Positions 29,911 to 60,301 of a DNA stretch of 64,000 nucleotides are shown here, piece after piece (position 1 is the stretch's first letter; every line of letters begins with the position of its first letter). This DNA comes from Acidobacteriota bacterium. GTDB taxonomy: Bacteria; Acidobacteriota; UBA890; WLXD01. The stretch spans positions 128,001 through 192,000 of the forward strand of contig CAXWPH010000015.1 in NCBI GenBank assembly GCA_963666055.2, given 5' to 3'. The notes under the pieces were generated by a model, which saw nothing but the letters and a program-made list of their open reading frames with translations, was not told where the DNA came from and did not search any database. Position numbers and translations under genes: made by a program.

Positions 29911-31344
29911 TTATCGGGCGACGGCGAACAGACTACGCTCGCCACGCACGTACATCACGCCGTCCGACAGCGCCGGCGTGGCCATCAGCAGCTCGCCCAT
30001 CGAGTTGGTGGCGATGTGCTCGAAGCTGCTGCCGGCACGCAGCACCAGAATCTCGCCATCCTCGCTGCAGAGATAGATCCGGCCATCGGCGGCAACCGGC
30101 GACGAGCTGAAGCCGGAGCCTAGATGCGGGAGCCGCACCCGATAAAGCTCTCGGCCAGAGGACAGCTCGTAGGCATCAAAGACGCCGTTGTTGGCCAGAA
30201 CGTAGAGCTGATCGCGATAGATGAGCGGCGTGGGCATGTACGGCCCCCTCCCCTGTGAGCTCCAGGCAACGTGGGCGTTGGAGCTCGCACCTCCGGTCGG
30301 CGTGATGTCGCCGCGGGCGCCGGGCCGCACCACGAATATCGGACGCTCCGGGTGCCGGCCGCTGGCGATAACGATGAAGTCGTCGCTGAACACCGGAGTC
30401 GGTGCGGTGATCTTGGAGCTGCCACCGAGACGCCAGAGCTCCTCACCGGTGGCAGGATCGTAGCCGTAGACATAGTTCGAGGAGTTGGTGATCAACTCCG
30501 ATGCGGCCGACCCCTCGTAGACGGTCGGCGTGCCCCACGATGGCAGCTCGTGACGTGGCGTTCGCCAGATCGTCGCGCCGTTCCGCGCGTCGAGCGCAAC
30601 GAGAAAATCCTCCGCCTGCGTGTCGTATTGCGCGATCACCATGCCGTTCCACAGGATCGGCGAGCTCGCCGGGCCCCACTCGTAATCCGCCGCGTCGTAG
30701 GCACCGATGTCGACGCGCCCCGGATCGAAGCTCCAGCGCGGCGTGCCGTCCATGTCGAAGGCGTGGAGTCCCTGCGAACCGAAGGAGGCCACCAGGGTGC
30801 GGCCATCGGTAGCCGGGGTGGAGCTCGCATAGGTCGATTTCACGTGCCGGGTGTCGATCGGCGTGCCCTCGTACACAACTCGCTCCCAAACCGTCTCACC
30901 GCTGTGCTTGTCGAGCGCGAACAGCACCCAGCGATGCACCGAGTGGTCGCTAGAGGCATCGCCGTCGCCGTACAGGCCGGGCCGAAAGCCGACGTCGTCG
31001 CGGCTGCTCACCGCCGAGGTGACGTAGAGTCGGTCGCCCCACACGACCGGGCTGGAATGCGCCAGGCCGGGAACCGTGACGCGCCAGCGGATGTTGTCGC
31101 CGGTCGCACCGTCCCAGGCATCGGGCAGGTTCTGGCCATCGGCAACTCCCGAAGCGCCAGGGCCTCGGAAAGACGGCCAGTGGCCATCGTCGACGACGGG
31201 AGCGGCGACGGAGAGGGCCGCCAGAGCCGCCGCCGAAGCGACCGCTATTGGGACGAACGGTGCGCCAACTGTCCGCTTCAGGGACAAAAACGCCGTTGCA
31301 CGAGACTTATCGTCGTTTGACAAAAATTTGACGGAACCCAGCAT
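29911..31344 (-). CDS. PQQ-binding-like beta-propeller protein; start uncertain
   Basis: [33 protein letters not shown]. Confidence 0.88.
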
Positions 31345-39937: not shown

Positions 39938-41203
39938 TTGCGTAGAAGCCTGATTGCAGCGCTCGTCATCCTACTTGCTTCCGCCTCCAGCAGCCAGGGA
40001 GACAACTGGCCGCAGTGGCGCGGCCCGGCGCTCAACGGCGTAAGCGCCGAGACCGGGCTGCCCACGACCTGGGACGCCGACACCAACATCACCTGGAAGC
40101 TGGAGCTTCCGGCTTGGAGCGGCGCCACGCCGATCGTCTGGGACGACACAGTGTTCCTGAACGTCGGTGACGGCACCAACATCTCGCTCTGGGCAATCGA
40201 TCGGGCCACCGGCAAGATCCGCTGGGGGCGAGTGCTGAGCGGCAATGACCACCGCGAGCGGAAGCAGAACATGTCGTCGCCCTCGCCGGTGACCGATGGC
40301 ACGCATGTGTGGGTGATGACCGGCACCGGCATCCTCAAGGCCTTCGACTTCGACGGCAACGAGCGCTGGAGTCGCGACATCCCGGCCGACTATGGAAGGT
40401 TCGGGCTCAACTGGGGTTACGCATCGTCGCCGCTGCTGTACGACGGCGCCCTCTTCGTGCAGGTGCTGCACGGCATGAAGACCGACGACACACCGTACCT
40501 GCTGCGCATCAACGCGGCCACCGGCGAGACCATGTGGCGTGTCGAGCGCCCTACCGACGCCATCCGCGAGTCTCCCGACTCCTATGGCACACCGGCGTTG
40601 CTGCAGTACGACGACACCACCGAGATCGTGCTCACCGGCGGCGACGTGGTGACCGGGCATGACCCCGGCACCGGCGAGGAGCTCTGGCGCTCCGACGGCC
40701 TCAACCCCGAGAACAACGGCGCCTACCGCATCGTCGCGTCAGCCGTCGTCATGGACAGGGTGATCTACGCGCCGACGCGAGAACGGCCGCTGCTGGCGCT
40801 GCGCGCCGGCGGCCGCGGCGATATCACCCAGACGCACCGCCTGTGGTCGTTCAACGACGGACCCGACGTGCCCACGCCGGTAACCGACGGGCGCTACTTC
40901 TACAGCATCAAGGACAACGGTGTCATCTTCTGCCTCGATGCCAAGACCGGCGAGCGCATCTACGGTCCAATTCGTCTCGCGGTCGGCACCTACAGCGCCT
41001 CGCCGGTGCTGGCCGACGGCAAGATCTACATCACCAACGAGGACGGTCTCACCAGCGTGATCAAATCTGGGCCGGAGTTCGAGATTCTGGCCGAGAACGA
41101 CCTCGGCGACTACACGCTGAGCTCGCCGGCGATCTCCGACGGTCAGATCTTCATCCGCACTGCCAGCGGGCTCTACGCGATCGGGGAGCGGCGCACGGAC
41201 TGA
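39938..41203 (+). CDS. PQQ-binding-like beta-propeller protein
   Basis: Signal peptide, NWPQWRGP, SPVTDG, ASSP, SSPAISDG; GAGGA RBS before TTG. Confidence 0.9.
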   Translation: MRRSLIAALVILLASASSSQGDNWPQWRGPALNGVSAETGLPTTWDADTNITWKLELPAWSGATPIVWDDTVFLNVGDGTNISLWAIDRATGKIRWGRVLSGNDHRERKQNMSSPSPVTDGTHVWVMTGTGILKAFDFDGNERWSRDIPADYGRFGLNWGYASSPLLYDGALFVQVLHGMKTDDTPYLLRINAATGETMWRVERPTDAIRESPDSYGTPALLQYDDTTEIVLTGGDVVTGHDPGTGEELWRSDGLNPENNGAYRIVASAVVMDRVIYAPTRERPLLALRAGGRGDITQTHRLWSFNDGPDVPTPVTDGRYFYSIKDNGVIFCLDAKTGERIYGPIRLAVGTYSASPVLADGKIYITNEDGLTSVIKSGPEFEILAENDLGDYTLSSPAISDGQIFIRTASGLYAIGERRTD

Positions 41204-46593: not shown

Positions 46594-48858
46594 ATGCGAA
46601 CATCCCGACCCCGCGGCACGCTTTCCTCACGGCTGACTGTTTCTTCACGATTGACCGTCGTTGCGCTTCTGGCGGCCTTGACGACCGTCTTGGCCTCGCC
46701 GTCTCCGGCCACCGAACCGAACGCCGCTGCCGCGGTACGTGCCGACGAGTGGACGAGCTGGCGCGGCCCGCACCAAAACGGCGTGTCGCCAGCCACCGAT
46801 CTGATCTCCAGCTGGTCGGTAGACGGCGACCATCAGATCTGGCGAAGCGATCTCGTCGGACGCTCGACGCCGGTGGTATTCGACGGCCGTGTATGCGCAA
46901 ACGGCCGCCGCGGCGACACTCACGAGACCGTCGCCTGCTGGAGTGCCGAATCCGGCGAGCTGCTATGGCAGCGCGACTACGTGATCTACAACACCACTGT
47001 GCCGTACACGCGCGTCGGCTGGGGCGGCGTTACTGCCGATGCCGAGACCGGCTATCTCTACGCTCACACGGTCGATGGGCTGCTCACGTGCCTCGACCGA
47101 GACGGCGAAACGGTGTGGGAGATCCGGCTCGGCGAGACCTACGGACGCGCCTCCGGGTACGGCGGCCGCACGCACACCCCCATCGTCGACGAGGACCGCG
47201 TAATCCTGGGGCTGATCGGTACCAGCTGGGGGGAGTTCGGGCCACCGCGCCACCGTTTCTATGCCTTCGACAAGCGCGATGGCCGGGTGGTGTGGACCGC
47301 CAACCCGAGTGAAGAGAACCCCAAGGACATGAACACTCAGGCGACGCCGATTGTCGCCGAGATCGCCGGGCAACGGCTGATGATCGGCGGTGCTGCCGAC
47401 GGCTGGATCTATGCGCTCAAGGCGCGTACCGGCGAGCTCGTCTGGAAATACCAGCTGAGCAAGCGCGGCATCAACACGGCGGTGGTGGTAGCCGACGAGG
47501 TGGTCTACGTCAGCCACAGCGAAGAGAACCTGGATGGCGGCCCGCAAGGCCGTGTGGTGGCCATCGACGCTACCGGCAACGGCAACGTGACCGACACCCA
47601 CGAGAAATGGCGCGCCGACGAGATCACCGTCGGGTTCGCATCGCCGCTGTTACACGACGGCGTTCTGTACCTGCTCGATAACTCCGCCAACCTGCGCGCC
47701 TTGGATACAACCACCGGCGACGAGCTCTGGACGCACAACGTCGGCACGGTGGGCAAGAGCTCGCCGGTATGGGCCGACGGCAAGATCTTCGTCACCGAGG
47801 TAAACGGTAACTTCGTCATCCTGGAGCCGGGCAGCGATGCAGCGACGGTGCTCGATTCGGATCGCATCGATATTCCCGAGGAGAGTCGTGCCGCCGAGAT
47901 CTATGGCTCTCCGGCGATCGCCTACGGTCGCATCTACTTCACCACCGAAGATGGGATCTTCTGCCTCGGCGACCCGGCTCAACCGTTCAGCATCGCGACG
48001 AGCGCCAGCCCCGCGGCTGCCGAATGGGCACCCGACGGGGCGGCCGCCCACGTCGCCGTCGTGGTTCCGACCGACGTGGTGGCCAGTAGCGGGGAGCGCA
48101 TCGCATTCGCGGCCCGCATCTTCGATGCGGCGGGCCGTTACATCGGCACCCGCGCCGCAGAATGGTCGCTAGAGGACCTGTCGGGCTCGTTGAGCGCCGA
48201 GGGCGCGTTCGTCGCCGACCCCGCGGTCGGCAGTCAGGCCGGGCACATCGTCGCCGCGATCGGCAACCTCACCGCCCGTGCCCGCGTACGGATCGCCGGC
48301 TCACTTCCGTGGACAGAGGACTTCTCGTCCAGCCAGAAGCCGCGGCACTGGATCGGCGCCGGACGCTACGCCACGGCGGAGCTCGACGGCGAGCCGGTGC
48401 TGCACAAGCCACCGGCCGCAACCGGTCTCAATCGATCGGTTATCTACACCGGTCCTGAAAGCACGTCGGCGGTCACGGTACAAATAGACATCCTCGGCAC
48501 ACGCGCGGGTCGTCGTCGGCCGGACGGTGGCGTGGTGAACAGCGGCTACACACTCGACCTCATGGGCAACCACCAGCGGGTTCAGGTGCGGTCGTGGGCC
48601 TCCGAGCTGCGCATGGCGCAGCAGGTCCCGTTCGAATGGGACATGGATACCTGGTACACGGCCAAGCTGCGGGTCGATCAGACTGTCGATCGCGCCATCG
48701 TGCGCGGCAAGATCTGGCAGCGCGGCGAACCCGAGCCCGCTGCATGGACGATCACGGCAGAAGATCCGTTGCCGATTCGGCACGGCGCCCCGGGGATCTA
48801 CGGCTACTCCCCCGTCGATCTCTACTTCGACAACTACAAGGTAACGGTGAACGAATGA
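46594..48858 (+). CDS. PQQ-like beta-propeller protein with C-terminal Ig-like and beta-sandwich domains
   Basis: W.SWRGP, GRSTPVV, YGGRT.TP, SPVWADGKI, SPAIAYGRIY, plus an ~300-aa extension. Confidence 0.85.
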   Translation: MRTSRPRGTLSSRLTVSSRLTVVALLAALTTVLASPSPATEPNAAAAVRADEWTSWRGPHQNGVSPATDLISSWSVDGDHQIWRSDLVGRSTPVVFDGRVCANGRRGDTHETVACWSAESGELLWQRDYVIYNTTVPYTRVGWGGVTADAETGYLYAHTVDGLLTCLDRDGETVWEIRLGETYGRASGYGGRTHTPIVDEDRVILGLIGTSWGEFGPPRHRFYAFDKRDGRVVWTANPSEENPKDMNTQATPIVAEIAGQRLMIGGAADGWIYALKARTGELVWKYQLSKRGINTAVVVADEVVYVSHSEENLDGGPQGRVVAIDATGNGNVTDTHEKWRADEITVGFASPLLHDGVLYLLDNSANLRALDTTTGDELWTHNVGTVGKSSPVWADGKIFVTEVNGNFVILEPGSDAATVLDSDRIDIPEESRAAEIYGSPAIAYGRIYFTTEDGIFCLGDPAQPFSIATSASPAAAEWAPDGAAAHVAVVVPTDVVASSGERIAFAARIFDAAGRYIGTRAAEWSLEDLSGSLSAEGAFVADPAVGSQAGHIVAAIGNLTARARVRIAGSLPWTEDFSSSQKPRHWIGAGRYATAELDGEPVLHKPPAATGLNRSVIYTGPESTSAVTVQIDILGTRAGRRRPDGGVVNSGYTLDLMGNHQRVQVRSWASELRMAQQVPFEWDMDTWYTAKLRVDQTVDRAIVRGKIWQRGEPEPAAWTITAEDPLPIRHGAPGIYGYSPVDLYFDNYKVTVNE

Positions 48859-50369
48859 TGCGTCGGAAGCTCTACTTCGGGATCCTGGTGGCCACCATCG
48901 TAACGGGCGTGGCAAGCGGCGCCGCCGTGCGTGGCGCGGTGGCCGGAACGCCGTCCGCAACAACGCTCGCCGTCGCGGCCGACGACGGTGTGGGGATGTT
49001 CGGCGGCGGCCCCGACCGCAACATGGTGTCCGACGAGACCGGGCTTCCCGGGGAGTGGGATACCCGCGCCGGGATGAACGTCAAGTGGTCGGTGGGCGTG
49101 GGCTCGCAGAGCTACGCCGGCCCGGTGGTGGTGGACGGCAAGGTGTTCATCGGCACCAACAACGAGGGGATGCGTAATCCCGATCTGCCCAACGACAAGG
49201 GCGTGATCATGGCGTTCGATGCCGACAGCGGCGAGTTTCTGTGGCAAATGGTGCACGACAAGCTGCCCGTTGGCCGGGTCAACGACTGGCCGCTACAGGG
49301 CATCTGCTCGACTCCGTACATCGAGGGCGACCGTCTTTACTACGTTTCCAACCAGGCCCACGTCGTCTGCGTCGACACCGAGGGACACCATGACGGCGAG
49401 AACGACGGACCGGACACCAGCGAGGAGCACACCTCGCCGATCGATGGCGACCGCATTTGGTCGTTCGACATGATCGGCGAGGTCGACGCCTTTCCGCACA
49501 ACCTGGCCACCAGCTCGCCACTGGTGGTGGGTGATCTGGTCTTCGCCTCGACAGGGAACGGCGTCGACGAGGGCCACGTGGCCATCCCCTCGCCTTTCGG
49601 TGCCAGCTTCGTAGCGTTGAACAAGCACACCGGCGAGCTGGTGTGGGACAACGCCGATCCCGGCGAGGGCATCTTGCACGGCACCTGGACGAACCCGACC
49701 TACGCGGTGGTGCAGGGCCGGCCGATGGTGATCTTCCCCGGTGGCGACGGCTGGGTACGCGCCTTCGTTCCCGAAACTGGTGAGCTGCTGTGGAAGTTCG
49801 ACGCCAACCCCAAGGACGCGGAGTGGCGTCTCGGCGGTCGTGGCACGCGCAACAACATCCTCTCCACGGTGGTGGTGCACGACGACAAGGCCTATATCGG
49901 AGTCGGCCAGGATCCCGAGCACGGCGAGGCCCCCGGTCACTTCTGGTGCTTCGACCCCAGCGGCAGCGGTGACATCACCGATTCCGCCGTCATCTGGCAC
50001 CGGGGCGGGCGCGACTTCCACCGCACCATGTCGACCGCCGCCATCGGCGACGGAGTCGTCTACATCTCCGATCTGTCGGGCTTCCTGTACGCGCTCGATG
50101 CCGACACCGGCGAGCACTACTGGACCTACGACACCTTCGCGGCCGTCTGGGGCTCGGCCTTCCTCGCCGACGGTAAGGTGTACCTCGGCGACGAGGACGG
50201 CGATGTGATCGTGCTACGGGCCGGCAAGGAGATGGAGGAGATCGCCGAGATGAACATGGGCGCCTCCGTCTACACCACCCCGTACGCCAAGGACGGGGTG
50301 CTCTACATCCTGTCGCGCAATCGCCTGTTCGCGATCGAAGAGGGTGCCCAGTCGGAGCCGACGAACTGA
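48855..50369 (+). CDS. PQQ-like beta-propeller protein, translationally coupled to the upstream paralog (ATGA)
   Basis: GSQSY..PVV..GKVF.GTNN, GICSTP, PHN...SSPL, GQDPEHG, GKVYLGDEDG. Confidence 0.87.
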   Translation: MMRRKLYFGILVATIVTGVASGAAVRGAVAGTPSATTLAVAADDGVGMFGGGPDRNMVSDETGLPGEWDTRAGMNVKWSVGVGSQSYAGPVVVDGKVFIGTNNEGMRNPDLPNDKGVIMAFDADSGEFLWQMVHDKLPVGRVNDWPLQGICSTPYIEGDRLYYVSNQAHVVCVDTEGHHDGENDGPDTSEEHTSPIDGDRIWSFDMIGEVDAFPHNLATSSPLVVGDLVFASTGNGVDEGHVAIPSPFGASFVALNKHTGELVWDNADPGEGILHGTWTNPTYAVVQGRPMVIFPGGDGWVRAFVPETGELLWKFDANPKDAEWRLGGRGTRNNILSTVVVHDDKAYIGVGQDPEHGEAPGHFWCFDPSGSGDITDSAVIWHRGGRDFHRTMSTAAIGDGVVYISDLSGFLYALDADTGEHYWTYDTFAAVWGSAFLADGKVYLGDEDGDVIVLRAGKEMEEIAEMNMGASVYTTPYAKDGVLYILSRNRLFAIEEGAQSEPTN

Positions 50370-50434: not shown

Positions 50435-50833
50435 ATGTACCTCGGGGCGCCGGCGAACGCTCACTTCGAGCCGCAGATCCGCATCGGCGAAGGCACCGCC
50501 GAGGTGCGCTTCGCGGTGCGGCCCGAGTACATGATCGCCGCCGGCTCGCTCCACGGCGCGGTGTACTTCAAGGCCCTCGACGACGCCGCCTTCTTCGCCT
50601 GCAGCTCGCTGGTGGAAGACGGTTTCTTGCTCACCGCCTCGTTCAACATCCATCTGTTGCGACCGGTCTCGGAAGGCGAGCTCGTGGCGACGGGCAAGGC
50701 AGTGCACCGCTCACGATCGCTCCTGCTGGGGGAGGCGGTGCTCGTCGATGCCGAGGGCCGCCAGCTCGCCCGCGGCAGCGGCACGTTCATGCGCGGCCGG
50801 ACGCCGTTGAGCGAGGCGATCGGTTACGCCTGA
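50435..50833 (+). CDS. PaaI family (hotdog) thioesterase; true start may be near 50366
   Basis: HG.VYFK.LDDAAFFA, LT.SFN...LRPV, G.G.F. Confidence 0.85.
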   Translation: MYLGAPANAHFEPQIRIGEGTAEVRFAVRPEYMIAAGSLHGAVYFKALDDAAFFACSSLVEDGFLLTASFNIHLLRPVSEGELVATGKAVHRSRSLLLGEAVLVDAEGRQLARGSGTFMRGRTPLSEAIGYA

Positions 50834-50838
50834 GCGCC

Positions 50839-51445
50839 TCAGCTGCGACGCCACTCCCGCAGGCGAACCGTATAGACACGCGGCGTCGCCGGCGGCATCT
50901 TGGTCGGATCCAGCAGATCCATATCGAACTCCCAGTCGCGGCTGGGCGCCTGGTACACCGGGCTGCCGTAGCGCCAGTTGCCGGTAGCGCCAGTTGCCGG
51001 TAGCGCCAGTTGCCGGTAGCGCCAGTTGCCGGTAGCGTTGGTCGAGTACCACAGGTCGATCAGGCTGCCGCGATAGGTGAACGTGCACCCGCTCCAACGC
51101 TCGAGGAAGCGCGGCAGGTTTTCGACGCCGCCGTTGTACGCTCCCGGAAACGTCTCGGTGTTGCCGAGCAGGAAGGCGGCGTTGATCGTCGTGTTCGAGG
51201 CCACCCGGGCGTTCAGAATGCGCTGGCTATAGGCGAGATCGTCGTCGCCCCAGGCGTTCGGCAGGATGGTGATCGCGTCGGCCAGCACCGCCGCCGGCTT
51301 CTTGTCCTCGGAGTTGTAGTCGCCCTGGATGTAGGCCGGGTTCGCCGTGACCACGGTCAAGGCGTCGGGAAGCTCCGCGCCGTTCTCGATCTTCAACGCG
51401 AACTCGGTGTTGCCGCCGTCGTAGGGGGCGAGGTATCCGTCCCAC
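50839..51445 (-). pseudogene. C-terminal fragment of a PilX/HpsA-like pilus-associated protein
   Basis: NG.ELP..LTV...NP.YIQGDYN, PAAV.ADAITIL, YNGG.EN.PRFLE.W, P.RDW.FD, PP.TP; N-terminus missing. Confidence 0.6.
50968..51037. repeat. Perfect tandem repeat (GTAGCGCCAGTTGCCG)x4 + GTAGCG
   Basis: Read directly; 16-nt unit. Confidence 0.95.
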
Positions 51446-52013
51446 GCAGATGGCCTGGTTTTCGTCGCCCACGCGCCCGCGGGCGTGCGGCGCCACATCC
51501 GCCACGATCCGTTTCCAGACGCGAGGAGTCATTTGTGACCAGTTTTAGATGTTAAAACGCGTTTTTGATCCTTGATACATAGAAATACACTCCCGTGTCC
51601 GCCGCTGAGAAGCAGAAAATCGCCTCTGGACTCGAATGGCCCCTGGCTTGGAGCGCGCGCATCGCGGGCTATCGGCGGACAGGCGACAGCCGGGATCGTG
51701 TCCACTGGCCAATCTTCCGATTCAGCCAACGACCCCGGCCACCGCCACCTCGCGAGCGTTTCGCCGACTCGCTGCGTGAGAGCGACGGGTCGAGAAGGTG
51801 TCGGTCGCCCTCACCGCCCCCACCGTAGGGCGCTTCACAACCGGACACTTGAGGAACTTCCGCGTTTTCTCTAAGGATTTCCTGATGGCCGGGGCGTTGA
51901 ATCGCCGGCACACACCCGCTAGCGTCGTATCGACAGCGGCCCGCGCATTCGTTTCCCCCGCTCCCCGGGGTCTCGGAACGGCGCCGACCCGAGGTGAACC
52001 CGGAGTTGAAACG

Positions 52014-53363
52014 ATGACAAGCGTGCCGTCGCGCGCCATCGCAAGCATGGCCGTCGCACTGCTCGGCCTGCCGATGCTGGTGACCGCAGCCGACGAGCCC
52101 GGGTCGAACTGGCCGGCACTCGGGGGCGCGGACGGCCTGCGGATCTCCCAGGACACCGGCCTGCTCACGAGCTGGAACCAGGACGAGCATGTGCTGTGGA
52201 AGACGGCGATCCCCGGCCGCGGCCACTCCTCACCGATCGTCTGGGGCGATCGCATCTTCCTGACCACCGCCATCCAGGGCGAGGAGATCACCGGACACAC
52301 GCCGCTGGTGCATTACTTCGAAGGAGAGGTGTGGCGACATCCCGGCAGCTACGGCTCACAGTTCAAGCACGAGTATCGGGTTGTCGCGATCGACGCAACG
52401 ACCGGCGAGATCGCCTGGAACCGTCTCGCCCACGCCGGTGTGCCCTACGATGATCGGCACCGCACCGGCTCGTTCGCCTCGCCCACCGCCGTGACCGATG
52501 GCGAGAGCGTCTACGCCTACTTCGGTGAGCCCGGCGTCTTCGCCTACGACTTCGACGGAAACCGGCTGTGGAGCGCCGAGATCGGTAAGGTCACCGAATT
52601 CGGTCTGGGCGTCTCCACCTCCCCGGTGCTCTTCGAGGACCTGCTGATCGTGCTGGCCGACGAGGACGAGGGCGAGCATTCGTTCATCGTGGCGCTCGAC
52701 AAGCACAGTGGCGAGGTCGTGTGGAAGAAAGATCGGCAGGTACAGTCGAACTGGTCGACCCCGCTGCTCATCGAGCGAGGCGATCAACCACAACTGGTCA
52801 CCAACGGCTTCGAGTGGTTGATTTCGTACGACCCGCGCACCGGAGAGGAGATCTGGCGGGTTCCCGGGCTGCAGAGCAACGCGGTGCACCACCCGTTGCT
52901 GCACAACGACTTCGCCATGTTCACCGCCGGCTATCCGGACAAGGTGCTCAAGGCGGTACGCCTCGACGGCGTCGAGGCCGGCAGCGATGCCGAGCGCGTC
53001 GCCTGGACCTACAACAAGGGCATGGGCTATGTGCCGTCCAACCTGTCCTACGACGGCTACGTGTACCTGCTGAGTGACAACGGCATCCTTACCTGCCTGG
53101 ACGCCAACACCGGTGAAGTGGTCTACGAGGGGGGACGCATGCCGGTTGCACAACGGTTCTTTGCCTCGCCGGTGGCCTTCGAGGGCAAGTTCATGCTGGC
53201 CGGGGCGGACGGCGAGGTGTTCGTGATCAAGGCGGGCCCGGAGTTCGAGGTGCTGGCCACCAACACCCTCGGGGAGCCCATCTTCGCCACTCCGGCGATC
53301 AGTAACGGGCGCATCTACATCCGCAGCGAGCACAATCTCTGGGCGATCGGAACGACAGATTGA
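52014..53363 (+). CDS. PQQ-binding-like beta-propeller protein
   Basis: Signal peptide, NWP, GHSSPIVWGD, WSTP, ATPAISNG. Confidence 0.9.
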   Translation: MTSVPSRAIASMAVALLGLPMLVTAADEPGSNWPALGGADGLRISQDTGLLTSWNQDEHVLWKTAIPGRGHSSPIVWGDRIFLTTAIQGEEITGHTPLVHYFEGEVWRHPGSYGSQFKHEYRVVAIDATTGEIAWNRLAHAGVPYDDRHRTGSFASPTAVTDGESVYAYFGEPGVFAYDFDGNRLWSAEIGKVTEFGLGVSTSPVLFEDLLIVLADEDEGEHSFIVALDKHSGEVVWKKDRQVQSNWSTPLLIERGDQPQLVTNGFEWLISYDPRTGEEIWRVPGLQSNAVHHPLLHNDFAMFTAGYPDKVLKAVRLDGVEAGSDAERVAWTYNKGMGYVPSNLSYDGYVYLLSDNGILTCLDANTGEVVYEGGRMPVAQRFFASPVAFEGKFMLAGADGEVFVIKAGPEFEVLATNTLGEPIFATPAISNGRIYIRSEHNLWAIGTTD

Positions 53364-53815
53364 GTCGTCCAGAAGTTCGTGTGCTGGTGCGCCGGCTGCC
53401 GGGCGCTGAGGACCTGCCACTGCCGAAGTACCAGACCGACGAGTCTGCCGCTGTCGACCTGCACGCGGCGCTCTCCGCGCCACTCGAGCTGGCACCCGGC
53501 GCCATCGAGCTGGTGCCGACCGGTTTGGCGATCGCGCTGCCGTCGGGATACGAGGCGCAGGTGCGGCCACGGTCCGGACTGGCCGTCAAGCACGGCGTTT
53601 CATTGCCCAACACGCCGGCGACGATCGACGCCGACTATCGCGGCGAGATCAAGGTGCCGCTGATCAACCACGGAGCCGAGACCGTGACCCTGACGCGCGG
53701 CATGCGCATCGCCCAGATGCTGGTGACACCGGTCCCACGCATCGTCTGGGACGAGGTCGACGAGCTGCCCGAAACCAACCGTGGACCGGGCGGTTTCGGA
53801 CACACGGGCGAGTAG
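53360..53815 (+). CDS. dut: dUTP diphosphatase
   Basis: SAA.DL, RPRSGLA, TIDADYRGE, RIAQ, RG.GGFGHTG. Confidence 0.95.
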   Translation: MSRPEVRVLVRRLPGAEDLPLPKYQTDESAAVDLHAALSAPLELAPGAIELVPTGLAIALPSGYEAQVRPRSGLAVKHGVSLPNTPATIDADYRGEIKVPLINHGAETVTLTRGMRIAQMLVTPVPRIVWDEVDELPETNRGPGGFGHTGE

Positions 53816-54577
53816 CTACTGGCTCTGCGAGGCCTCGGGCCGCGCCTCGTTGCGCTGTCGGAAACGACCCCTACCGGACCCGCTCATCGATTCTTGATGA
53901 GCTTCCAGCTCCTCGCGAGTCAGCTGTCCGTTGCCGTCGGCGTCGGCGCTCGACAGGCGTTCCCACAGCGTCTCGGGCATGCCCTCGCTGCTCAGGTAGC
54001 CGTCGCCGTCCGCATCGAAGCGTGAAAACAGACCGTCGAGCATCCGCTGGCGCATGATCCCTCGACCTCGTTGATCAACAGCGCCGCCACCACCGCGGCC
54101 GAAGCCGCCTTGGAAGCCTCCAGACCAGTGGCGACCGCCCCCAAGTTCGGGTCGGCTGGTCCAGAGGCCTCCGCTGGCGAATCGATGTCTCCCGAACGGA
54201 CCGAATCGGCGCGCCCCAGCAAAGCCGTGACCCCGGGCAAGGGCGCGACCGGGTCCGAAACGAACCACGGCGCCAAACTCCCGGCCAGCCACGGCGCCGC
54301 CCATGAAAGCGCGGCGTAAACGTCCGCCCTGCTGCGGCATTAGCTCGTCGGCGCTGATAGCGCCGTCGGCGTTCACATCCAGACCCGAGAGCGAGTCCGA
54401 GGCAGCGGCAATCTCGGCCGCCGAGATCTGACCGTCGCCGTCGGCGTCCAACGCCTGCAGTAGCGACATCGACTGACGCCAACCGTCAGGCCGCTCCGTG
54501 GCCGTCTGCGCAAAGCCCGGCGCCGCAACTACCAGCATGGCAACCGTGATCGTTGCCGGAGTTCTCCAGGCGCTCAT
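53816..54577 (-). CDS. Secreted EF-hand protein with Gly/Arg/Phe-rich linker
   Basis: DADGDGQISAAE, DVNADGAISADE, DADGDGYLSSE, DADGNGQLTREE; GGAGG RBS. Confidence 0.85.
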   Translation of the reverse strand: MSAWRTPATITVAMLVVAAPGFAQTATERPDGWRQSMSLLQALDADGDGQISAAEIAAASDSLSGLDVNADGAISADELMPQQGGRLRRAFMGGAVAGREFGAVVRFGPGRALARGHGFAGARRFGPFGRHRFASGGLWTSRPELGGGRHWSGGFQGGFGRGGGGAVDQRGRGIMRQRMLDGLFSRFDADGDGYLSSEGMPETLWERLSSADADGNGQLTREELEAHQESMSGSGRGRFRQRNEARPEASQSQ

Positions 54578-54711
54578 CGCGTTCCTCCGTGATCCGATGG
54601 GCAATGCGACCCAGCGGTTTCCTGTCCACTCCGCGATCCCCTTTGATTGATTGGACCAGACGGCGCCGAGGAACGACGTCGACGGTTGGCAAAGTTGTGT
54701 AAAGAAGTGTA

Positions 54712-54727
54712 GGGGGGGGGGGGGGGG
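54712..54727. repeat. G16 homopolymer
   Basis: Read directly. Confidence 0.9.
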
Positions 54728-54934
54728 TGGAGGATTACTGTGAGTACGGAGATATCCCCATTATTATCAGCAAGTTACAGGAGCTTCGAGCGTAACGGTG
54801 GATCGCCTCAATTACGGTGTATTAGGGGGATTAGCGGGGCCGTTTTGGTACAGATTTGGTACGGCGATCACCCGTAGGGCGTTCCCAGCATGACCGGCTG
54901 AGTACCGTCGATGAGCAGCCTTGCAGTTCTTTTC

Positions 54935-55245
54935 TTAGGGGCGGCGGGCGCGGTCAACTTGATCCTTTCCATACTTCAAGATCAGTGAGTTGAGGAAATC
55001 TGGTTCCACGTCCCGAACGTAGGCGAGTAATCCAGCGAGGCGAGAGCGCTGAGGAGGTTCCAAACGGTCGAGTTGGTGAACCTGGGCTTTGATGCCTCGC
55101 TTTAGAGAGCGCCCTATCGAGACTTTGCCATCGGGAGTTAGGACTAGCCCTGTGACGCGTCTGCGCCCGCGTCGCGATGAGTGGCGTGTTTTGTTTAGGT
55201 TTAACTCTAGCCCCGCTGGGTACGGGAGGGCCTTGAGAATACCGC
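54935..55245 (-). pseudogene. C-terminal (domain 7/thumb) fragment of a retron-type reverse transcriptase
   Basis: L.LN..KT, RRVTGLVL...GKVSIGR..KR.IK..VH, L.GLLAY...VEPDF...L..KYG; no YxDD palm. Confidence 0.8.
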
Positions 55246-55316
55246 GGTAGCCGCGTAATGTGACTCGTGTAACAACCAGTAAGTGTTCCTTCTCATTCCC
55301 TGGAATCCCATACCGA

Positions 55317-55627
55317 TGCACGAGACGAAGCACTCCGATGGACTAGGCAAACTGACTGAGCCGCTGGTCCTCGAAAGTGCAGAAGACGCTCGGCACCTGG
55401 CTATGGCGCTGAAGAATGGCAGGAGCTACACGGCGTTCAGGAAGGACATGTGTCCCCACGGCATCAGGTCTACGGCGTCGCTGCACGGGTGGTGTAGAGG
55501 TAACCGAGTGCCCACGCTGGAGCACCTGATCATGCTCGCCGGGATTGCTGGTGCGCGTGTCGTCATCGAACCCGATCCGGAGCGCACGCCAAAGAGTCAG
55601 GGGGACGGCCTTAACGAGGACGCTTAG
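55317..55627 (+). CDS. Small Cro/XRE-like HTH protein
   Basis: S...F...GIRSTASLHGW.RG.RVPTLE.L..LA pattern. Confidence 0.6.
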
Positions 55628-56223
55628 AGTTCGATCTGCTCGCTGGCCTTCCTTACGTCCTCTCGTGTGATGCCGAGATAGGCGAGTAGCGACGCAGGTG
55701 TTCGGTGCCCGAGCTTGGTCTGGATGACCGCCATCGGGATGCCCTTATCGAGCGCGTGCCGGCCCCACGCTTTCCGCCATGAGTGTGGCGAGTAGGGTCC
55801 GCCCCTGAGCCCGACAGCATCCGCGTCGCGCCTGACGATCTTCCACACCTGGGTGCGGCCCAGGGGCTTGGGCAGGTCCGTGTCGGGGTCGCTGCGGTTC
55901 GACGGGAACAGTGGCGCCTCGAGCTGTTCGGGAGTCGGGTGACCGTCAGCCAGATACTCCCTGATGGCGCGCTCGACCTTCTTGGTTACATCGCAGGTCA
56001 CCGTCTTGCCGGTCTTCTGCTGCGTGACCTGGAACGAGGAGCGCAACTGCCCCTGACGATCGAGGACGGACCCGACCTTCACCGCGAGCAGGTCAGAGAC
56101 GCGCAGCGCCCAGTTCGGAGCTGCGGTCCACAGCAGCGCATCGCGGTAGCTGCCTGCTCCCCGGTGCATGTTCTGAATGGCCCGTACCTTGCCTACAGGG
56201 ATGTATTCAGCAGCGTTACTCAT
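55624..56223 (-). CDS. Tyrosine recombinase, catalytic domain only (199 aa, resolvase-like)
   Basis: RD..L, LRVSDLL (R), QKTGK (K), HSWRK (HxxR), LGH, YLG (Y); AGGAG RBS. Confidence 0.9.
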   Translation of the reverse strand: MSNAAEYIPVGKVRAIQNMHRGAGSYRDALLWTAAPNWALRVSDLLAVKVGSVLDRQGQLRSSFQVTQQKTGKTVTCDVTKKVERAIREYLADGHPTPEQLEAPLFPSNRSDPDTDLPKPLGRTQVWKIVRRDADAVGLRGGPYSPHSWRKAWGRHALDKGIPMAVIQTKLGHRTPASLLAYLGITREDVRKASEQIEL

Positions 56224-56364
56224 CGCGATATCGCTCCTGCCAGTAGTGAACGATACCGACGACACTAGACATGTCTGTTCACTTATGCAACCGAACGGGC
56301 CGCGATCGAGGGTCGGTTATCGTACCTAAGTCATTGCTAAGTATCGGCTTAGGTCGATTCCATC

Positions 56365-56395
56365 GAAGTGAACAGAATCGCTTTCTGTTCACTTC
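56365..56395. promoter_or_regulatory. Candidate recombination core site
   Basis: GAAGTGAACAGA-ATCGCTT-TCTGTTCACTTC; additional half-site TCTGTTCACTT at 56274-56284. Confidence 0.65.
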
Positions 56396-56536
56396 TGCCT
56401 GGGCGGCCCTGCGCCTACTGCGATCGTTGCCGGTGTCCCTTTAGCTCGTAACGGTAGGCGTCTCTTGATACCTACGCACGGGATGCATAGCCTGCGACGG
56501 CGAATTGTTCCCTTTCTCGAACCCCTAGGAGGGGTC

Positions 56537-56932
56537 ATGCTCAACCGCAGAACACTCGCCGTTGTCGTGATGATCGTCGCGGCTTCCGCTATCGGCAGCG
56601 CCCTGTTCGCTCAGATGACCGGCACCGCGGCAGTCCTCCGTGTGGTCGTCGTCCAGACCGCCGATCCGGCTGCCTACGCGGCCGCCATCGCCGAGGGTCA
56701 GGAGATGCTCACCGGGCTCGGTTCCGAGGCTACAATCCGCGTATGGCAGGCGCGCTTCGCTGGGCAGGACGCCGGCGCTGTCGTCGCGTCAATCGAGTGG
56801 CCGAGCATGTCGGCGATGGCCGCCGATGACGAACTCATGGCGGGCAGCGACGAGATGCGTGCCTGGCTGGCCGGTCTCTCGGAGCTGCGCACCATCGTCT
56901 CCGACAGCCTTTACCAGGAAGCCACTCAGTAG
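56537..56932 (+). CDS. Secreted hypothetical protein (possibly dimeric alpha/beta-barrel)
   Basis: AGGAGG RBS, signal peptide, GC-biased coding pattern. Confidence 0.7.
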   Translation: MLNRRTLAVVVMIVAASAIGSALFAQMTGTAAVLRVVVVQTADPAAYAAAIAEGQEMLTGLGSEATIRVWQARFAGQDAGAVVASIEWPSMSAMAADDELMAGSDEMRAWLAGLSELRTIVSDSLYQEATQ

Positions 56933-57140
56933 CTACCAATCTCAAACGCTGCGGCGTCGCTTCTCGTCGCGGTACTCCCCCCGCTTGTCGGCGCATCCAT
57001 CCTTGGATTGCTCACAGCAAACTATCGCCGACAGGGGGGGGGGCGGGGGGTCTAGGGACTCCTGTAAGCAGCGGCACGGATCGGCGCGCGAGGTTAGGAT
57101 GGGCCTGCTGCCGCCCGCCAACGCAACGAAGCGAGATCTG

Positions 57141-58253
57141 ATGTCGAGCACCCCGGCCTTGGAGCCTGATCTAGAGGGCCGCGTCGTCGCCGCGTGCCTG
57201 GCGCTCGATGAGCAGGTGCGAGCCATCGTCGCCTGGCATTTCGATCCCGCCACCGGCTGCCCGTTCTGGTTGCAGTGGGCCACGCAGCAGGACTGGAACC
57301 CACGCGACACGATCGGCGGCTTCGACGACCTGGTGAAGTTCGGCCACTTTCAGGACGATTGGCTGCGCGGCGGCCCGGTGCGACGCTGGGTGCCGAAAGC
57401 GTACGCCGATCGCCCGGTGTTCACGTTCGAGACCGGTGGCACGACGGGCACACCGAAAACCCGCATCAACATCGACGACTTTCGCACCGACTACGAGCTG
57501 TTCTCCGACACGCTCCCCGACGAGCACTTTCCGCCCGGCACCAACTGGCTGATGCTCGGCCCCAGCGGACCCCGGCGCCTGCGGCTGGCGGTGGAGCACC
57601 TGGCGCATCATCGCGGCGGCATCTGCTTCTGCGTCGACCTCGACCCACGCTGGGTAATCAAGCTGATCAGGAAAGGCTGGACCGAGCATCTCAAGGCCTA
57701 CCAGGAACATGTCATCGACCAGGCGGTTACGATCCTCGAGTCGAACCACGAGATCCACTGCCTGTTCACTACCCCGAAGCTACTGGAGGCGCTGGCGCTA
57801 CGCCTCGAGGACAAGGGCACGACGATTCGACAGGCGGGGATCAGCGGAATCTTTTCCGGTGGCACCGAGTTCACCCCGCAGTGGAACCGTTTCGCCCATG
57901 AAGAGCTCCTCGACGGTGCCTACATGACACCGACCTACGGCAACACGCTCATGGGCCTTGCCGCGAGCTCGCCGAGCGGCCCGCACAACGGCTACAAGAT
58001 CACCTACTACGCACCGCAGCCGCGCGCCGCGGTGCAGGTCGTGGATCCTGACGACGCCACCCGGCTCGTGCCTTATGGAGAGACCGGGCGGGTGATGTTG
58101 ACCACGCTCACCAAGGAGTTTTTCATGCCGCGTTTCCTAGAGCGCGACGAGGGCGAGCGCGAGCTGCCCTACGAGGGCTACCCTTGGGACGGCGTCAGCG
58201 GCGTTCGGCCCTTCGCGCGCATCGCCAAGTCGACGACCGTGGGCGTGTACTGA
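57141..58253 (+). CDS. Stand-alone ANL-type adenylation protein (GriC/EhpF/LuxE-PaaK-like)
   Basis: WHF.P.TG.PFW, FETGGTTG.PK P-loop, GPSGP, VDLDPRWV, YGNT.MG, ERD. Confidence 0.8.
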   Translation: MSSTPALEPDLEGRVVAACLALDEQVRAIVAWHFDPATGCPFWLQWATQQDWNPRDTIGGFDDLVKFGHFQDDWLRGGPVRRWVPKAYADRPVFTFETGGTTGTPKTRINIDDFRTDYELFSDTLPDEHFPPGTNWLMLGPSGPRRLRLAVEHLAHHRGGICFCVDLDPRWVIKLIRKGWTEHLKAYQEHVIDQAVTILESNHEIHCLFTTPKLLEALALRLEDKGTTIRQAGISGIFSGGTEFTPQWNRFAHEELLDGAYMTPTYGNTLMGLAASSPSGPHNGYKITYYAPQPRAAVQVVDPDDATRLVPYGETGRVMLTTLTKEFFMPRFLERDEGERELPYEGYPWDGVSGVRPFARIAKSTTVGVY

Positions 58254-58301
58254 TCCGGGAACGGACGCCTCCGACAACCCGAACCGCCTGAGAACAACCG
58301 C

Positions 58302-59720
58302 ATGATTCACTTTCCGGTCCTACGTTGGGGCGAGCCATACGAGAGCCTCGAGACCGAGGAGGTCGTTCACTTCGCCACCGGTGAGCCCATCGCCAAGGTG
58401 AGCCAGGCGAGCCAGGGGATGGTTGCACGCGACATGCGCAAGGCGCAGCGGGCGCGCAACGTGCTGCGGGACGTGGCGCCATCTGACCTGCTGGCGATGA
58501 CCCAGAAGGCTGGCGAGCTGTTCATGACCGCCGATCTACCACTCGGCGACGGCTCCCAGTCGCCCGCCGACTTCGTGCGTCAGCAGTCGGCCACCACCGG
58601 GCTCTCCGAGCACATGTGCCGGATGAATATGGAAAAGCTCCGGTTCGTGCTCGAGCACATGGACGAGATCCTCGAGTCGCTCACTCGCCATCTCGATCTC
58701 AACATCCTGGCGCGCGGCTTCGGCGAGGAGGGCGGGGTCATGCGCAGTTACCAATCGACTACCAACGCCCTCGGCATGGTGCTGCCGTCGAACTCGCCCG
58801 GTGTACACACCTTGTGGCTGCCGGTCATCCCCTTGCAGATCGGCCTGGTGCTGAAGCCCGGTCCGCAGGAGCCCTGGACACCCTGGCGTATGTCGCAGGC
58901 GTTCTTCGAGGCCGGCGTGCCGCGTCAAGCGATCGCTGTCTACCCGGGGGGGCCCGACGTGGGCGCCGGGGTGCTCAACAACACCGAGCGCAGCTTGATC
59001 TTCGGCGGCCTGCCGACTGTCGAGCAGTACCGTGGCCACCCCGGCGTTCAGGTGCACGGTCCTGGGTTCAGCAAGATCCTCTTCGGTGACGATGTAGTCG
59101 ACAACTGGGAGCAACACCTCGATCTCATGGTCGACTCGGTGCTGGTGAACGCCGGCCGCTCATGCATCAACTGTTCGGGCATCTGGGCGTCGCGGCATAC
59201 GCGTGAGATTGCGGCGGCCCTGGCCGGACGCCTGGCCACTGTCGAGGCGCTCCCGCCGGACGACGACGCCGCCCAGTTGGCGGCGTTTACTGTTCCGGGC
59301 CAGGCCAAGGCGATCTCGGAGGACATCGACGCCAATCTCGACTCCGAAGGCGTTGAGGATGTCACCGCGTCGTATCGTGACGCCGGTCGGCTAGTGGAGC
59401 AGGCGCGCTGCGACTACCTACTGCCGACGGTGGTCCATTGCGCCGCTGCGGGGCAGCCAATTGCAGGCAAGGAGTACATGTTCCCCTTCGTGACCGTCGT
59501 CGAGTGCCCACAAGACGAGATGATCGAGGCTATCGGCGACACCCTGGTGGCCACCGCCATCACCGACGATGCTGGATTTCGGCGAAATCTACTGGACGCC
59601 CCGAACATCGACCGGCTGAACTTCGGCGCCATCCCGACGGTGCAGCTCAATTGGTTGCAGCCCCACGAGGGCAACATCGTCGATTTTCTATACCGCGCAA
59701 GAGCTTTTCAGTCGGCCTGA
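58302..59720 (+). CDS. ALDH/LuxC-like acyl reductase (GriD-like)
   Basis: PSNSPGVH.LW, LKPG..EP.TP, HGPG.SK, GRSC.N.S catalytic Cys, E..FPF, PHEG. Confidence 0.82.
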   Translation: MIHFPVLRWGEPYESLETEEVVHFATGEPIAKVSQASQGMVARDMRKAQRARNVLRDVAPSDLLAMTQKAGELFMTADLPLGDGSQSPADFVRQQSATTGLSEHMCRMNMEKLRFVLEHMDEILESLTRHLDLNILARGFGEEGGVMRSYQSTTNALGMVLPSNSPGVHTLWLPVIPLQIGLVLKPGPQEPWTPWRMSQAFFEAGVPRQAIAVYPGGPDVGAGVLNNTERSLIFGGLPTVEQYRGHPGVQVHGPGFSKILFGDDVVDNWEQHLDLMVDSVLVNAGRSCINCSGIWASRHTREIAAALAGRLATVEALPPDDDAAQLAAFTVPGQAKAISEDIDANLDSEGVEDVTASYRDAGRLVEQARCDYLLPTVVHCAAAGQPIAGKEYMFPFVTVVECPQDEMIEAIGDTLVATAITDDAGFRRNLLDAPNIDRLNFGAIPTVQLNWLQPHEGNIVDFLYRARAFQSA

Positions 59721-59753
59721 GCTGCAATAAGACCGATCTCTTCGCTGGCCAGC

Positions 59754-59779
59754 GCCACACTTCCACCACGGTCTGCTAG
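59754..59779. repeat. Solo right end of MITE family A
   Basis: GCCACACTTCCACCACGGTCTGCTAG; shares its CTAG with the family B element. Confidence 0.7.
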
Positions 59780-60053
59780 TGGCCTGTAACAGATGATCGT
59801 TGCAACTCGTGGTGGCGAGTTGGGTGCGGATGCCAGGCGCGACGACGAGACGATGTTTGCCCATCGTGGAGGAGGAGCAACGCCGCAGACGGGCCGATTT
59901 CGCCGCCATCCTGCGGACAGATGGGCCGTTGCGGGCGATCTCGGCGTTGCGTCTCGTCGACGATGCCCACTGCATCGCCTTCCTCGCCGCGCCTTGATCT
60001 CACCCGCAAATCCCATCTGCGATATGCAACGATCATCTGTTACAGGCCACTAG
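59776..60053. mobile_element. MITE family B, 278 bp
   Basis: Perfect 29-bp TIR including CTAG: CTAGTGGCCTGTAACAGATGATCGTTGCA; two inverted hairpin modules inside. Confidence 0.88.
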
Positions 60054-60286
60054 GCGTTGGGAAGCACGGACACCTGGCCCGAATCGATGATCCGCTGGTC
60101 GGCCGTTGCCAACGTAAGGTCGAAGGCCCGCGCAGTGGCTACGAGGAATCGGTCGGCCGGGTCGCGGAAGGGCAACTTCAGCGTCGCCATCTGCAGCGCG
60201 ATAAACCGAGAAACTGGGGCGTCTCGCATCGGAACGCGGCGGAGCCCAACCCGCACCGCGATCGGTGACCCCTCAGGCTGGAGCAC
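60050..60286 (-). pseudogene. C-terminal fragment of a PIN/VapC toxin
   Basis: DPADRFLVATA....LTL.TAD..I motif; the N-terminal DT motif and an antitoxin are absent. Confidence 0.75.
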
Positions 60287-60301
60287 TCTGCGGTATCGGG
60301 C

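Follow-up and report, generated by a model that had tools for sequence, protein, structure and literature searches.

The gene pair and its products

The subject of this analysis is a pair of adjacent genes, here called A and B, in a 64,000-nucleotide stretch of DNA from an Acidobacteriota bacterium (the window; G000:C15:128001-192000, where G000 is this genome, 95.7% complete). A sequence-only reading had described the pair as a short ANL adenylation enzyme followed by an aldehyde dehydrogenase (ALDH)/LuxC-like protein with a catalytic Cys, and both open reading frames (ORFs) and all of the motifs were confirmed:

57141..58253, + strand: gene A, EhpF/GriC-type adenylation enzyme; 370 aa from ATG, without the ANL C-terminal subdomain, ending in VGVY
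58302..59720, + strand: gene B, EhpG/GriD-type ALDH-fold protein; 472 aa, with N164, C288 and E391 kept and His252 at the catalytic Glu position

The genes lie 48 nt apart on the same strand and are present once each in the genome. An alternative in-frame ATG at 57099 would extend A to 384 aa. The G+C content of the A/B region is typical for the window, and a pattern search of 56200-60400 found no sigma-70 promoter or terminator.

Protein A carries the motifs ETGGTTGTPK (residues 97-106), YGNT (266-269) and ERD (334-336). Its sole close relative of solved structure is EhpF (PDB 3L2K/3HGU; E 1.6e-39 over residues 24-359), and a 19-sequence A-family profile recovered EhpF at E 6e-61, with no other match below 0.006; the rest showed weak P-loop similarity to 4-chlorobenzoate and phenylacetate CoA ligases. 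Like EhpF, with which it aligns co-terminally, A stops where the ANL C-terminal subdomain would start, and the G-x-Y end is invariant in all 13 EhpF-type rows aligned, plasmid relatives included. The last Cys is C207, and a C-terminal thioester-forming Cys is absent. In a tree of 26 proteins, which has flagged long branches, 15 members of the system described below formed one clade (98/99) within the EhpF-like group and apart from PaaK. A PaaK-like gene elsewhere in the genome (C15:477422-478555) was considered as a further member and dropped, given ~30% identity to operon-linked PaaK genes and a long branch. Plasmid relatives of A are annotated as 'arylcarboxylate reductase'. On three Streptomyces plasmids (L085, L091 and L092), ALDH-less EhpF-like genes lie by type I polyketide synthase (PKS), malonyltransferase or futalosine-pathway genes, where they perhaps activate starter units.

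Protein B matches Pfam Aldedh (E 1.7e-18) and no other Pfam family, and is 24.5% identical to the protein that follows EhpF (the EhpG position) in the Pantoea phenazine cluster. N164, C288 and E391 were invariant in all 18 system rows of the B alignment, and in the same 18 rows the position of the hydrolytic Glu was His252. B thus departs from the Asn/Glu/Cys triad of irreversible oxidative ALDHs; EhpG-type proteins likewise lack the glutamate of the ELGG motif. Within the GRSCINCS motif (285-292), C291 varies and C288 alone is at the nucleophile position, and the nucleotide-binding residues K185 and E391 are retained. A quick tree grouped B with EhpG-position proteins, apart from two ordinary ALDHs (SH-aLRT 100). 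According to a review, the triad is universal in irreversible oxidising ALDHs and its Glu is lost in reductive or acylating families, which include AlDH18, a reductive family with His replacing Glu, and CoA-acylating oxidising enzymes such as methylmalonate-semialdehyde dehydrogenase (MMSDH) (PMC12041015). The residues and grouping of B suggest that it is likely an acyl-adenylate reductase. The LuxC part of the earlier description did not hold, since the LuxC profile PF05893 matched only G000:C15:2167739-2168809. That separate LuxC-family reductase (locus G000:C15:2163784-2168824) has short-chain dehydrogenase/reductase, acyl-carrier-protein-like, AMP-ligase and LuxE-like neighbours, named by sequence inspection, and lies inside a polysaccharide-type locus.

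The two genes are conserved as a pair. A species-genome scan found A relatives in at least 573 of 580 candidate stretches and returned 80 loci for neighbourhood counts, and a protein search with A scored at least 8000 candidates, all at E<=1e-10. B was present near A in 72 of the 80 loci, in 66 of them within 1 kb downstream, and seven of the eight loci without B end within 2.9 kb of A. When A and B were folded together, the complex scored 0.75 in three runs, a value that 116 of 157 solved complexes attain, against 2 of 215 mismatched pairs; the best of three controls scored 0.00. The runs agreed in at least 67% of contacts, partner pLDDT was at least 91, and the predicted interface includes family-invariant residues (K213, Q247, R250, F251 and E255 of A; S15 of B). 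Structure searches with the A and B family profiles found no solved EhpF-EhpG complex. The model supports binding of A to B. With full-length homology of A to EhpF and an adjacent ALDH partner without the Glu, the pair falls by sequence among the EhpF/EhpG-type reductases, in agreement with its earlier assignment to the GriC/GriD and EhpF types. A and B likely constitute a two-protein carboxylic acid reductase, and the carrier-free acid-to-aldehyde chemistry proposed from the window is, by analogy with these enzymes, its likely reaction.

A dispersed operon and its co-occurring propellers

The pair had been called an orphan, a stand-alone system with no visible cluster. A and B instead belong at the centre of a conserved ~16-gene operon, from which they are displaced here. 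In four relatives (G075, G097, G108 and G029) these genes form one contiguous run: two pyrroloquinoline quinone (PQQ)-like beta-propeller genes (prop735 and prop504), A, B, an iron-type alcohol dehydrogenase (Fe-ADH), a third propeller (prop361), a radical S-adenosylmethionine (SAM) enzyme, an optional propeller plus TonB receptor, a flavoprotein, a DUF3311 protein, a sodium:solute symporter (SSS), a GT4 glycosyltransferase, a thioesterase, an ABC ATPase and an FtsX permease. A few of these genes were hidden by shadow ORF calls and had their positions confirmed by separate gene searches. In this genome the break point lies between B and the Fe-ADH gene. prop735 and prop504 are 7-10 kb upstream of A/B, and the second half, twelve genes on the minus strand of the same contig, is ~1.5 Mb away (G000:C15:1662276-1678280). 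It encodes the Fe-ADH, a 361-aa propeller, the HemN-like radical SAM enzyme, a propeller, the TonB receptor, the halogenase-like flavoprotein, the DUF3311 protein, the sodium:solute symporter, a GT4 with an N-terminal CGSC motif, the thioesterase, a LolD-like ATPase and a 1121-aa FtsX permease. The absence of a visible cluster is therefore true within the window alone and misleading, with two operon genes at 46651-50369 and twelve elsewhere on the contig.

Three genomes of the same genus or family (G002, G004 and G006) have the second half on the same strand and 45-70 kb downstream, so the 1.5-Mb separation and inversion here represent a rearrangement. In Planctomycetota operons the gene set is the same and its order is shuffled. 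Of the 80 loci, 43 had a reciprocal match to the ABC ATPase of this genome, 38 to FtsX, 35 to GT4, 16 to prop504, 14 to prop735, 13 to Fe-ADH, 12 to DUF3311 and 11 to SSS; these counts come from tblastn with a reciprocal check, since the gene caller tends to choose shadow ORFs where G+C is high. What had looked like a second ALDH when neighbouring genes were clustered proved to be GT4, drawn in by chaining of clusters. Searches of the literature, most subscription journals excepted, turned up no account of the operon or of the growth of the propeller family.

Two features of the second half are recorded here. The propeller before its TonB receptor (L082:13366-14669; G000:C15:1673365-1674668) is split into a 372-aa ORF and an overlapping 81-aa ORF with the C-terminal blade, either by a frameshift or by an assembly error. 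Two PhzF-family genes (L083:990-2646; G000:C15:1678989-1680645) are divergent from the Fe-ADH gene; they were not seen beside the operon elsewhere in the loci viewed and are probably unrelated to it.

To follow the system across genomes, we sampled 111 Acidobacteriota genomes, at least 90% complete, and 101 Planctomycetota genomes. A matched 28 of the 111, and one match, a distant EhpF-like gene in G048 (33% identity), was set aside, leaving 27. GT4 was present in the same 27 plus G105, prop735 in the same 27 plus G112, and the radical SAM enzyme in 25 of the 27 and no others. The flavoprotein gave 30 matches at 1e-45, 24 of them below 1e-100 and all in A genomes; the six weaker ones were in genomes without A (one is G046, on which no claim rests). 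A profile built from 17 propellers scored 27 proteins of this genome above 200 bits and every other one below 100 bits. By this measure the propeller family was present in 29 of the 111 genomes, namely the 27 with A together with G105 and G112, in copy numbers from 5 to at least 16; the other 82 genomes had none.

The Planctomycetota repeated this pattern. A matched below 1e-100 in 19 of the 101 genomes and distantly (1e-34 to 1e-47) in eight. The radical SAM enzyme occurred in exactly the same 19, GT4 in 26 (the 19 plus seven) and the propellers in 28 (the 26 GT4 genomes plus two), and the eight genomes with only a distant A had none of the radical SAM enzyme, GT4 or propellers. The upstream enzymes thus nest in the late module, and the late module nests in the propeller family. 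Carriers span many families, nesting occurs in two phyla, and the proposed client propellers occurred only where the pathway or its late module was present. Fisher tests (8e-24 and 4e-14) overstate the association through genome kinship and were not used as evidence. A functional link between the pathway and the propellers is likely. The suggestion of core metabolism fits the order, in which 23 of 26 genomes (this one included) have the pair, mostly in single copy, and fails for the phyla as a whole, with A in 27/111 Acidobacteriota and 19/101 Planctomycetota.

The following features of the window are operon genes, members of the propeller family or the stretch that interrupts the operon:

46651..48858, + strand: prop735, PQQ-like beta-propeller; start uncertain; opens the contiguous operon of relatives
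48855..50369, + strand: prop504, PQQ-like beta-propeller; directly 5' of A in contiguous operons
52047..53363, + strand: belongs to the multi-copy propeller family, which co-occurs with the system; without a fixed place in the operon
39938..41203, + strand: belongs to the multi-copy propeller family; its model falls in the BamB-like eight-bladed class
29911..31287, - strand: member of the multi-copy propeller family, by profile
50435..57140, no strand: 6.7-kb stretch between prop504 and A, with a thioesterase, a propeller, a dUTPase-like ORF, an EF-hand protein, a retron-type reverse transcriptase fragment and a tyrosine recombinase

The propeller family is predicted to be exported. Genome-wide there are ~25 further PQQ-dehydrogenase-like propeller proteins of 510-735 aa (e.g. 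G000:C15:867020-869463). PqqC had no match in a family search of the genome, whose control also gave no match. The 6.7-kb stretch has no counterpart in the contiguous operons of relatives. At 54935-56265 (- strand) it encodes the C-terminal part of a retron St85-type reverse transcriptase (model positions 197-289, E 2e-20) behind a 213-aa tyrosine recombinase, and together these look like the remains of a mobile island. Just 3' of B is a 278-nt element (59776-60053) with 73-nt inverted terminal arms, which resembles a miniature inverted-repeat transposable element; the genome holds nine copies including this one at 94-100% identity over at least 260 nt, plus many diverged ones. Between it and a Vps10/BNR gene, a short ORF (60053-60286, - strand; no Pfam match for the fragment) resembles a longer ORF of 131 aa at the same place in a relative's locus (L002), which we take to encode a PIN-domain protein.

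In six Planctomycetota loci without A (L118-L123; genomes G146, G192, G138, G140, G139 and G172), the system GT4 is present and the FtsX/ABC genes and prop361 occur in three. There, GT4 is linked to NuoE/F- and NuoG-like iron-sulfur flavoproteins, a membrane 4Fe-4S protein and an NHL protein. Two of the loci hold a squalene-hopene-cyclase-like gene, and prenyltransferase-like genes are also among the A-less neighbours. These loci are possibly an anaerobic variant of the system.

A proposed pathway and its alternatives

Several genes bear on the substrate. In four Planctomycetota operons a 180-210 aa protein of chorismate-lyase fold is encoded between the radical SAM enzyme and the flavoprotein, and its orthologue here (C15:877711-878292) folds like the DUF98 protein AF1396 (E 8e-9) and E. 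coli chorismate lyase (2e-5). These proteins were detected by tblastn, Atlas and fold search; their Atlas clusters carried the labels Chor_lyase (17%) and Rv2949c-like (11%), Pfam Chor_lyase had no match in the genome, and Pfam returned nothing for the chorismate-lyase-like proteins. Among the 111 Acidobacteriota the gene is present in eight, all with A; its coordinates place it between the radical SAM and flavoprotein genes of G065 and G090, and immediately past the radical SAM gene of G070. The flavoprotein has halogenase CmlS as its best NCBIfam match, below cut-off, and carries the motifs WFWYIP and FPHKHS, which we take to be halogenase-type. The operon thioesterase is 4HBT-type. Together, the chorismate-lyase-fold gene, this thioesterase and the halogenase-type motifs suggest a 4-hydroxybenzoate-type acid as the substrate, probably made in some genomes and imported in others. 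In four of the eight plasmid loci read, A/B relatives adjoin chorismate-processing genes. On balance we expect the substrate of A/B to be aromatic.

Gene content, conserved order, co-occurrence and catalytic-site residues were observed directly, and for the reaction we drew on EhpF/EhpG and GriC/GriD. The pathway that we favour, and hold to be somewhat probable, is one in which A and B form a carrier-free reductase that converts a 4-hydroxybenzoate-type acid to the aldehyde, as one step of the ~16-gene set, and the product is exported for the propellers. The acid would come from chorismate via the optional chorismate-lyase-fold protein, or by import through the SSS/DUF3311 symporter and TonB receptor. 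A would adenylate it with ATP; in the predicted complex A is docked on B, where Cys288 would take the acyl group and NAD(P)H would then free the aldehyde. Because B has no Glu to activate water, the thioester would escape hydrolysis. Judging from gene content, and in no implied order, the flavoprotein may halogenate or hydroxylate the ring, the HemN-like radical SAM enzyme may add carbon, the Fe-ADH may reduce the aldehyde to the alcohol, GT4 may conjugate the product, and the LolD-like ATPase with the 1100-aa FtsX permease may carry it across the inner membrane.

That the product is a cofactor or bound ligand of the propellers is a tentative suggestion. In its fuller form, which is similarly speculative, the operon would make a 4-hydroxybenzoate-derived cofactor or prosthetic group, probably halogenated, methylated, reduced and sugar-conjugated, which is exported by FtsX/ABC and loaded into dozens of 'PQQ-less' PQQ-like propellers, and genomes without A/B would use an alternative anaerobic route or salvage. 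If true, a mis-annotated BamB-like family would be a new class of periplasmic enzymes in Acidobacteriota and Planctomycetota.

A number of observations weigh against the proposed pathway and its link to the propellers. The chorismate-lyase-fold orthologue of this genome is unlinked to the operon, the gene is absent from 19 of the 27 A-bearing Acidobacteriota, and the protein also matches GntR effector domains. A is only ~31-37% identical to EhpF-type proteins (31% to EhpF) and forms its own clade, so the substrate is not transferable from EhpF or GriC. Three of the eight plasmid relatives of A have no B neighbour and lie by PKS, malonyltransferase or mqn genes; A alone therefore does not imply reduction. 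The co-occurrence cut-offs were chosen by the analyst, the genomes are related and so not independent samples, and some operon-proximal propellers went into the propeller profile. Propellers occur without A in 9 of 28 Planctomycetota and 2 of 29 Acidobacteriota, and five such genomes that were tested also lacked B and kept the FtsX permease. The A-less GT4/FtsX/propeller loci show that a different upstream part can accompany the late module, and since their GT4 lies beside NuoEFG-like and 4Fe-4S genes, not importers, they make no case for simple salvage. The propellers model as BamB-like, their closest known relative is the non-enzymatic BamB, and no conserved catalytic residue or signature was obvious in them.

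Among the alternatives, an aliphatic substrate, as for LuxE/LuxC, is unlikely and yet the strongest. A and B would then supply a fatty-alcohol glycolipid or lipid anchor that FtsX/ABC extracts into the envelope, with the propellers as BamB-like scaffolds; the LolD-like ATPase and duplicated FtsX permease, the GT4 and thioesterase in the operon, the resemblance of the propellers to BamB, and the squalene-hopene-cyclase-like and polyprenyl synthase genes beside GT4 in some Planctomycetota would fit this. Against it, the A profile finds EhpF and not LuxE, A lacks the C-terminal Cys, B has no LuxC-profile match, and the operon contains chorismate-lyase-fold and halogenase-like genes. Slightly less likely still, B could transfer an aryl group to an amine or alcohol acceptor, or run oxidatively, from alcohol to aldehyde to acyl-adenylate, in an uptake or catabolic route fed by the SSS symporter and TonB receptor. 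Glu loss in oxidising enzymes of the MMSDH kind (in the excerpts of PMC12041015) would allow this, as would the importers within the operon and a distant A/B pair in Halalkalicoccus that follows a sodium:solute symporter next to an amine oxidase. However, the excerpted text of PMC10179220 describes GriC/GriD as adenylating and reducing 3-amino-4-hydroxybenzoic acid (3,4-AHBA), B keeps K185 and E391, and the radical SAM, GT4, chorismate-lyase-fold and exporter genes fit synthesis.

Two further readings are improbable. A stand-alone reductase of general metabolism, linked to its neighbours by accident of ancestry, would suit a pair that lies apart from both operon halves here and in some relatives and in which A is 59-95% identical within the Acidobacteriota phylum. 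It is largely refuted by the near all-or-none co-occurrence with GT4, radical SAM enzyme, flavoprotein and propellers in two phyla, by contiguous operons in distant families and by the presence of A in only a quarter of the Acidobacteriota sampled, and we give it little weight. Least probable of all is a role for A/B in tailoring phenazines or 3,4-AHBA made by genes at another genomic locus. The PhzF-family pair beside the Fe-ADH gene would speak for it and was not seen beside the operon in the relatives' loci viewed. The claim that the window has no phz, AHBA or nonribosomal peptide synthetase genes holds, part of its proteins having been scanned with Pfam, and extends to the genome for the families searched. 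The Pantoea PhzA/B protein gave 0 tblastn hits in the genome, and a family search was also empty, its control giving no match; family searches whose controls matched found neither the GriH/dehydroquinate synthase family nor a condensation domain, GriI not being searched. The only hits to phenazine/AHBA core genes were unlinked isochorismatase, TrpE/PabB-type and PhzF-family genes, and no such cluster was found to explain the pair.

Comparison with known systems

This kind of enzyme is known already and has been studied only in antibiotic and pigment clusters. Here the pair is strongly conserved, is mostly present once per genome and belongs to an uncharacterised pathway of abundant bacteria, from soil, sediment and hosts, in at least two phyla (>570 genome stretches), and its tight coupling to 27 paralogous propellers in this genome offers a testable handle on propeller function. 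A carrier-free aryl-acid reductase needing no phosphopantetheinylation would be a useful biocatalyst. The case also indicates that two genes without an apparent cluster in 64 kb of sequence may belong to an operon scattered over the genome.

Among the closest counterparts is EhpF/EhpG of the D-alanylgriseoluteic acid phenazine cluster in Pantoea agglomerans (PDB 3HGU, 3HGV and 3L2K), which, like A/B, comprises a truncated ANL enzyme followed by an ALDH-fold protein without the ELGG Glu. A/B differ in lacking phenazine core genes, in forming a separate clade, in being far more conserved across phyla and in their place inside a propeller/GT4/FtsX operon. GriC/GriD, the presumed homologues of A/B, share the two-protein make-up, and their activity matches the name given to the plasmid relatives of A. 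In the grixazone pathway of Streptomyces griseus, this AMP-binding protein and reductase convert an aryl acid to the aldehyde via acyl-AMP (excerpts of PMC10179220, citing Suzuki 2007). In contrast, no GriH route to 3,4-AHBA was found in this genome, where GriI was not searched.

LuxE/LuxC (PDB 7XC6) also combine adenylate-forming and ALDH-superfamily partners, reductive in the case of LuxC, in one complex, and LuxE uses a C-terminal Cys for transfer (excerpts of PMC12041015). The A-B complex is a prediction, A has no such C-terminal Cys relay, and neither A nor B matches Lux sequences or the LuxC profile. No luciferase genes were seen, and no search was aimed at them. In Planctomycetales strain 10988, a producer of 3,5-dibromo-p-anisic acid, a chorismate-lyase-like gene adjoins a flavin-dependent halogenase (baaA/baaB), and this neighbourhood and that of the bmp loci resemble the four Planctomycetota operons here; the baa assignment is made without a genetic test, and the excerpts of that report mention no reductase, radical SAM enzyme, GT4 or exporter (bioRxiv 10.1101/723874).

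Compared with Nocardia-type carboxylic acid reductases of adenylation-thiolation-reductase (A-T-R) architecture, the system here has only the 370-aa A and the ALDH-fold B, and no carrier gene was recognised in the operons. At the level of the whole operon, the comparison is with PQQ (with PqqU) and mycofactocin (with glycosylation), cofactor systems with export and salvage. No precursor peptide was seen here, the enzymes are others and the candidate clients are BamB-like propellers. By analogy, the Acidobacteriota and Planctomycetota system would resemble them in its tailoring enzymes, its glycosyltransferase, its import and export transporters and its many co-occurring paralogous candidate clients.

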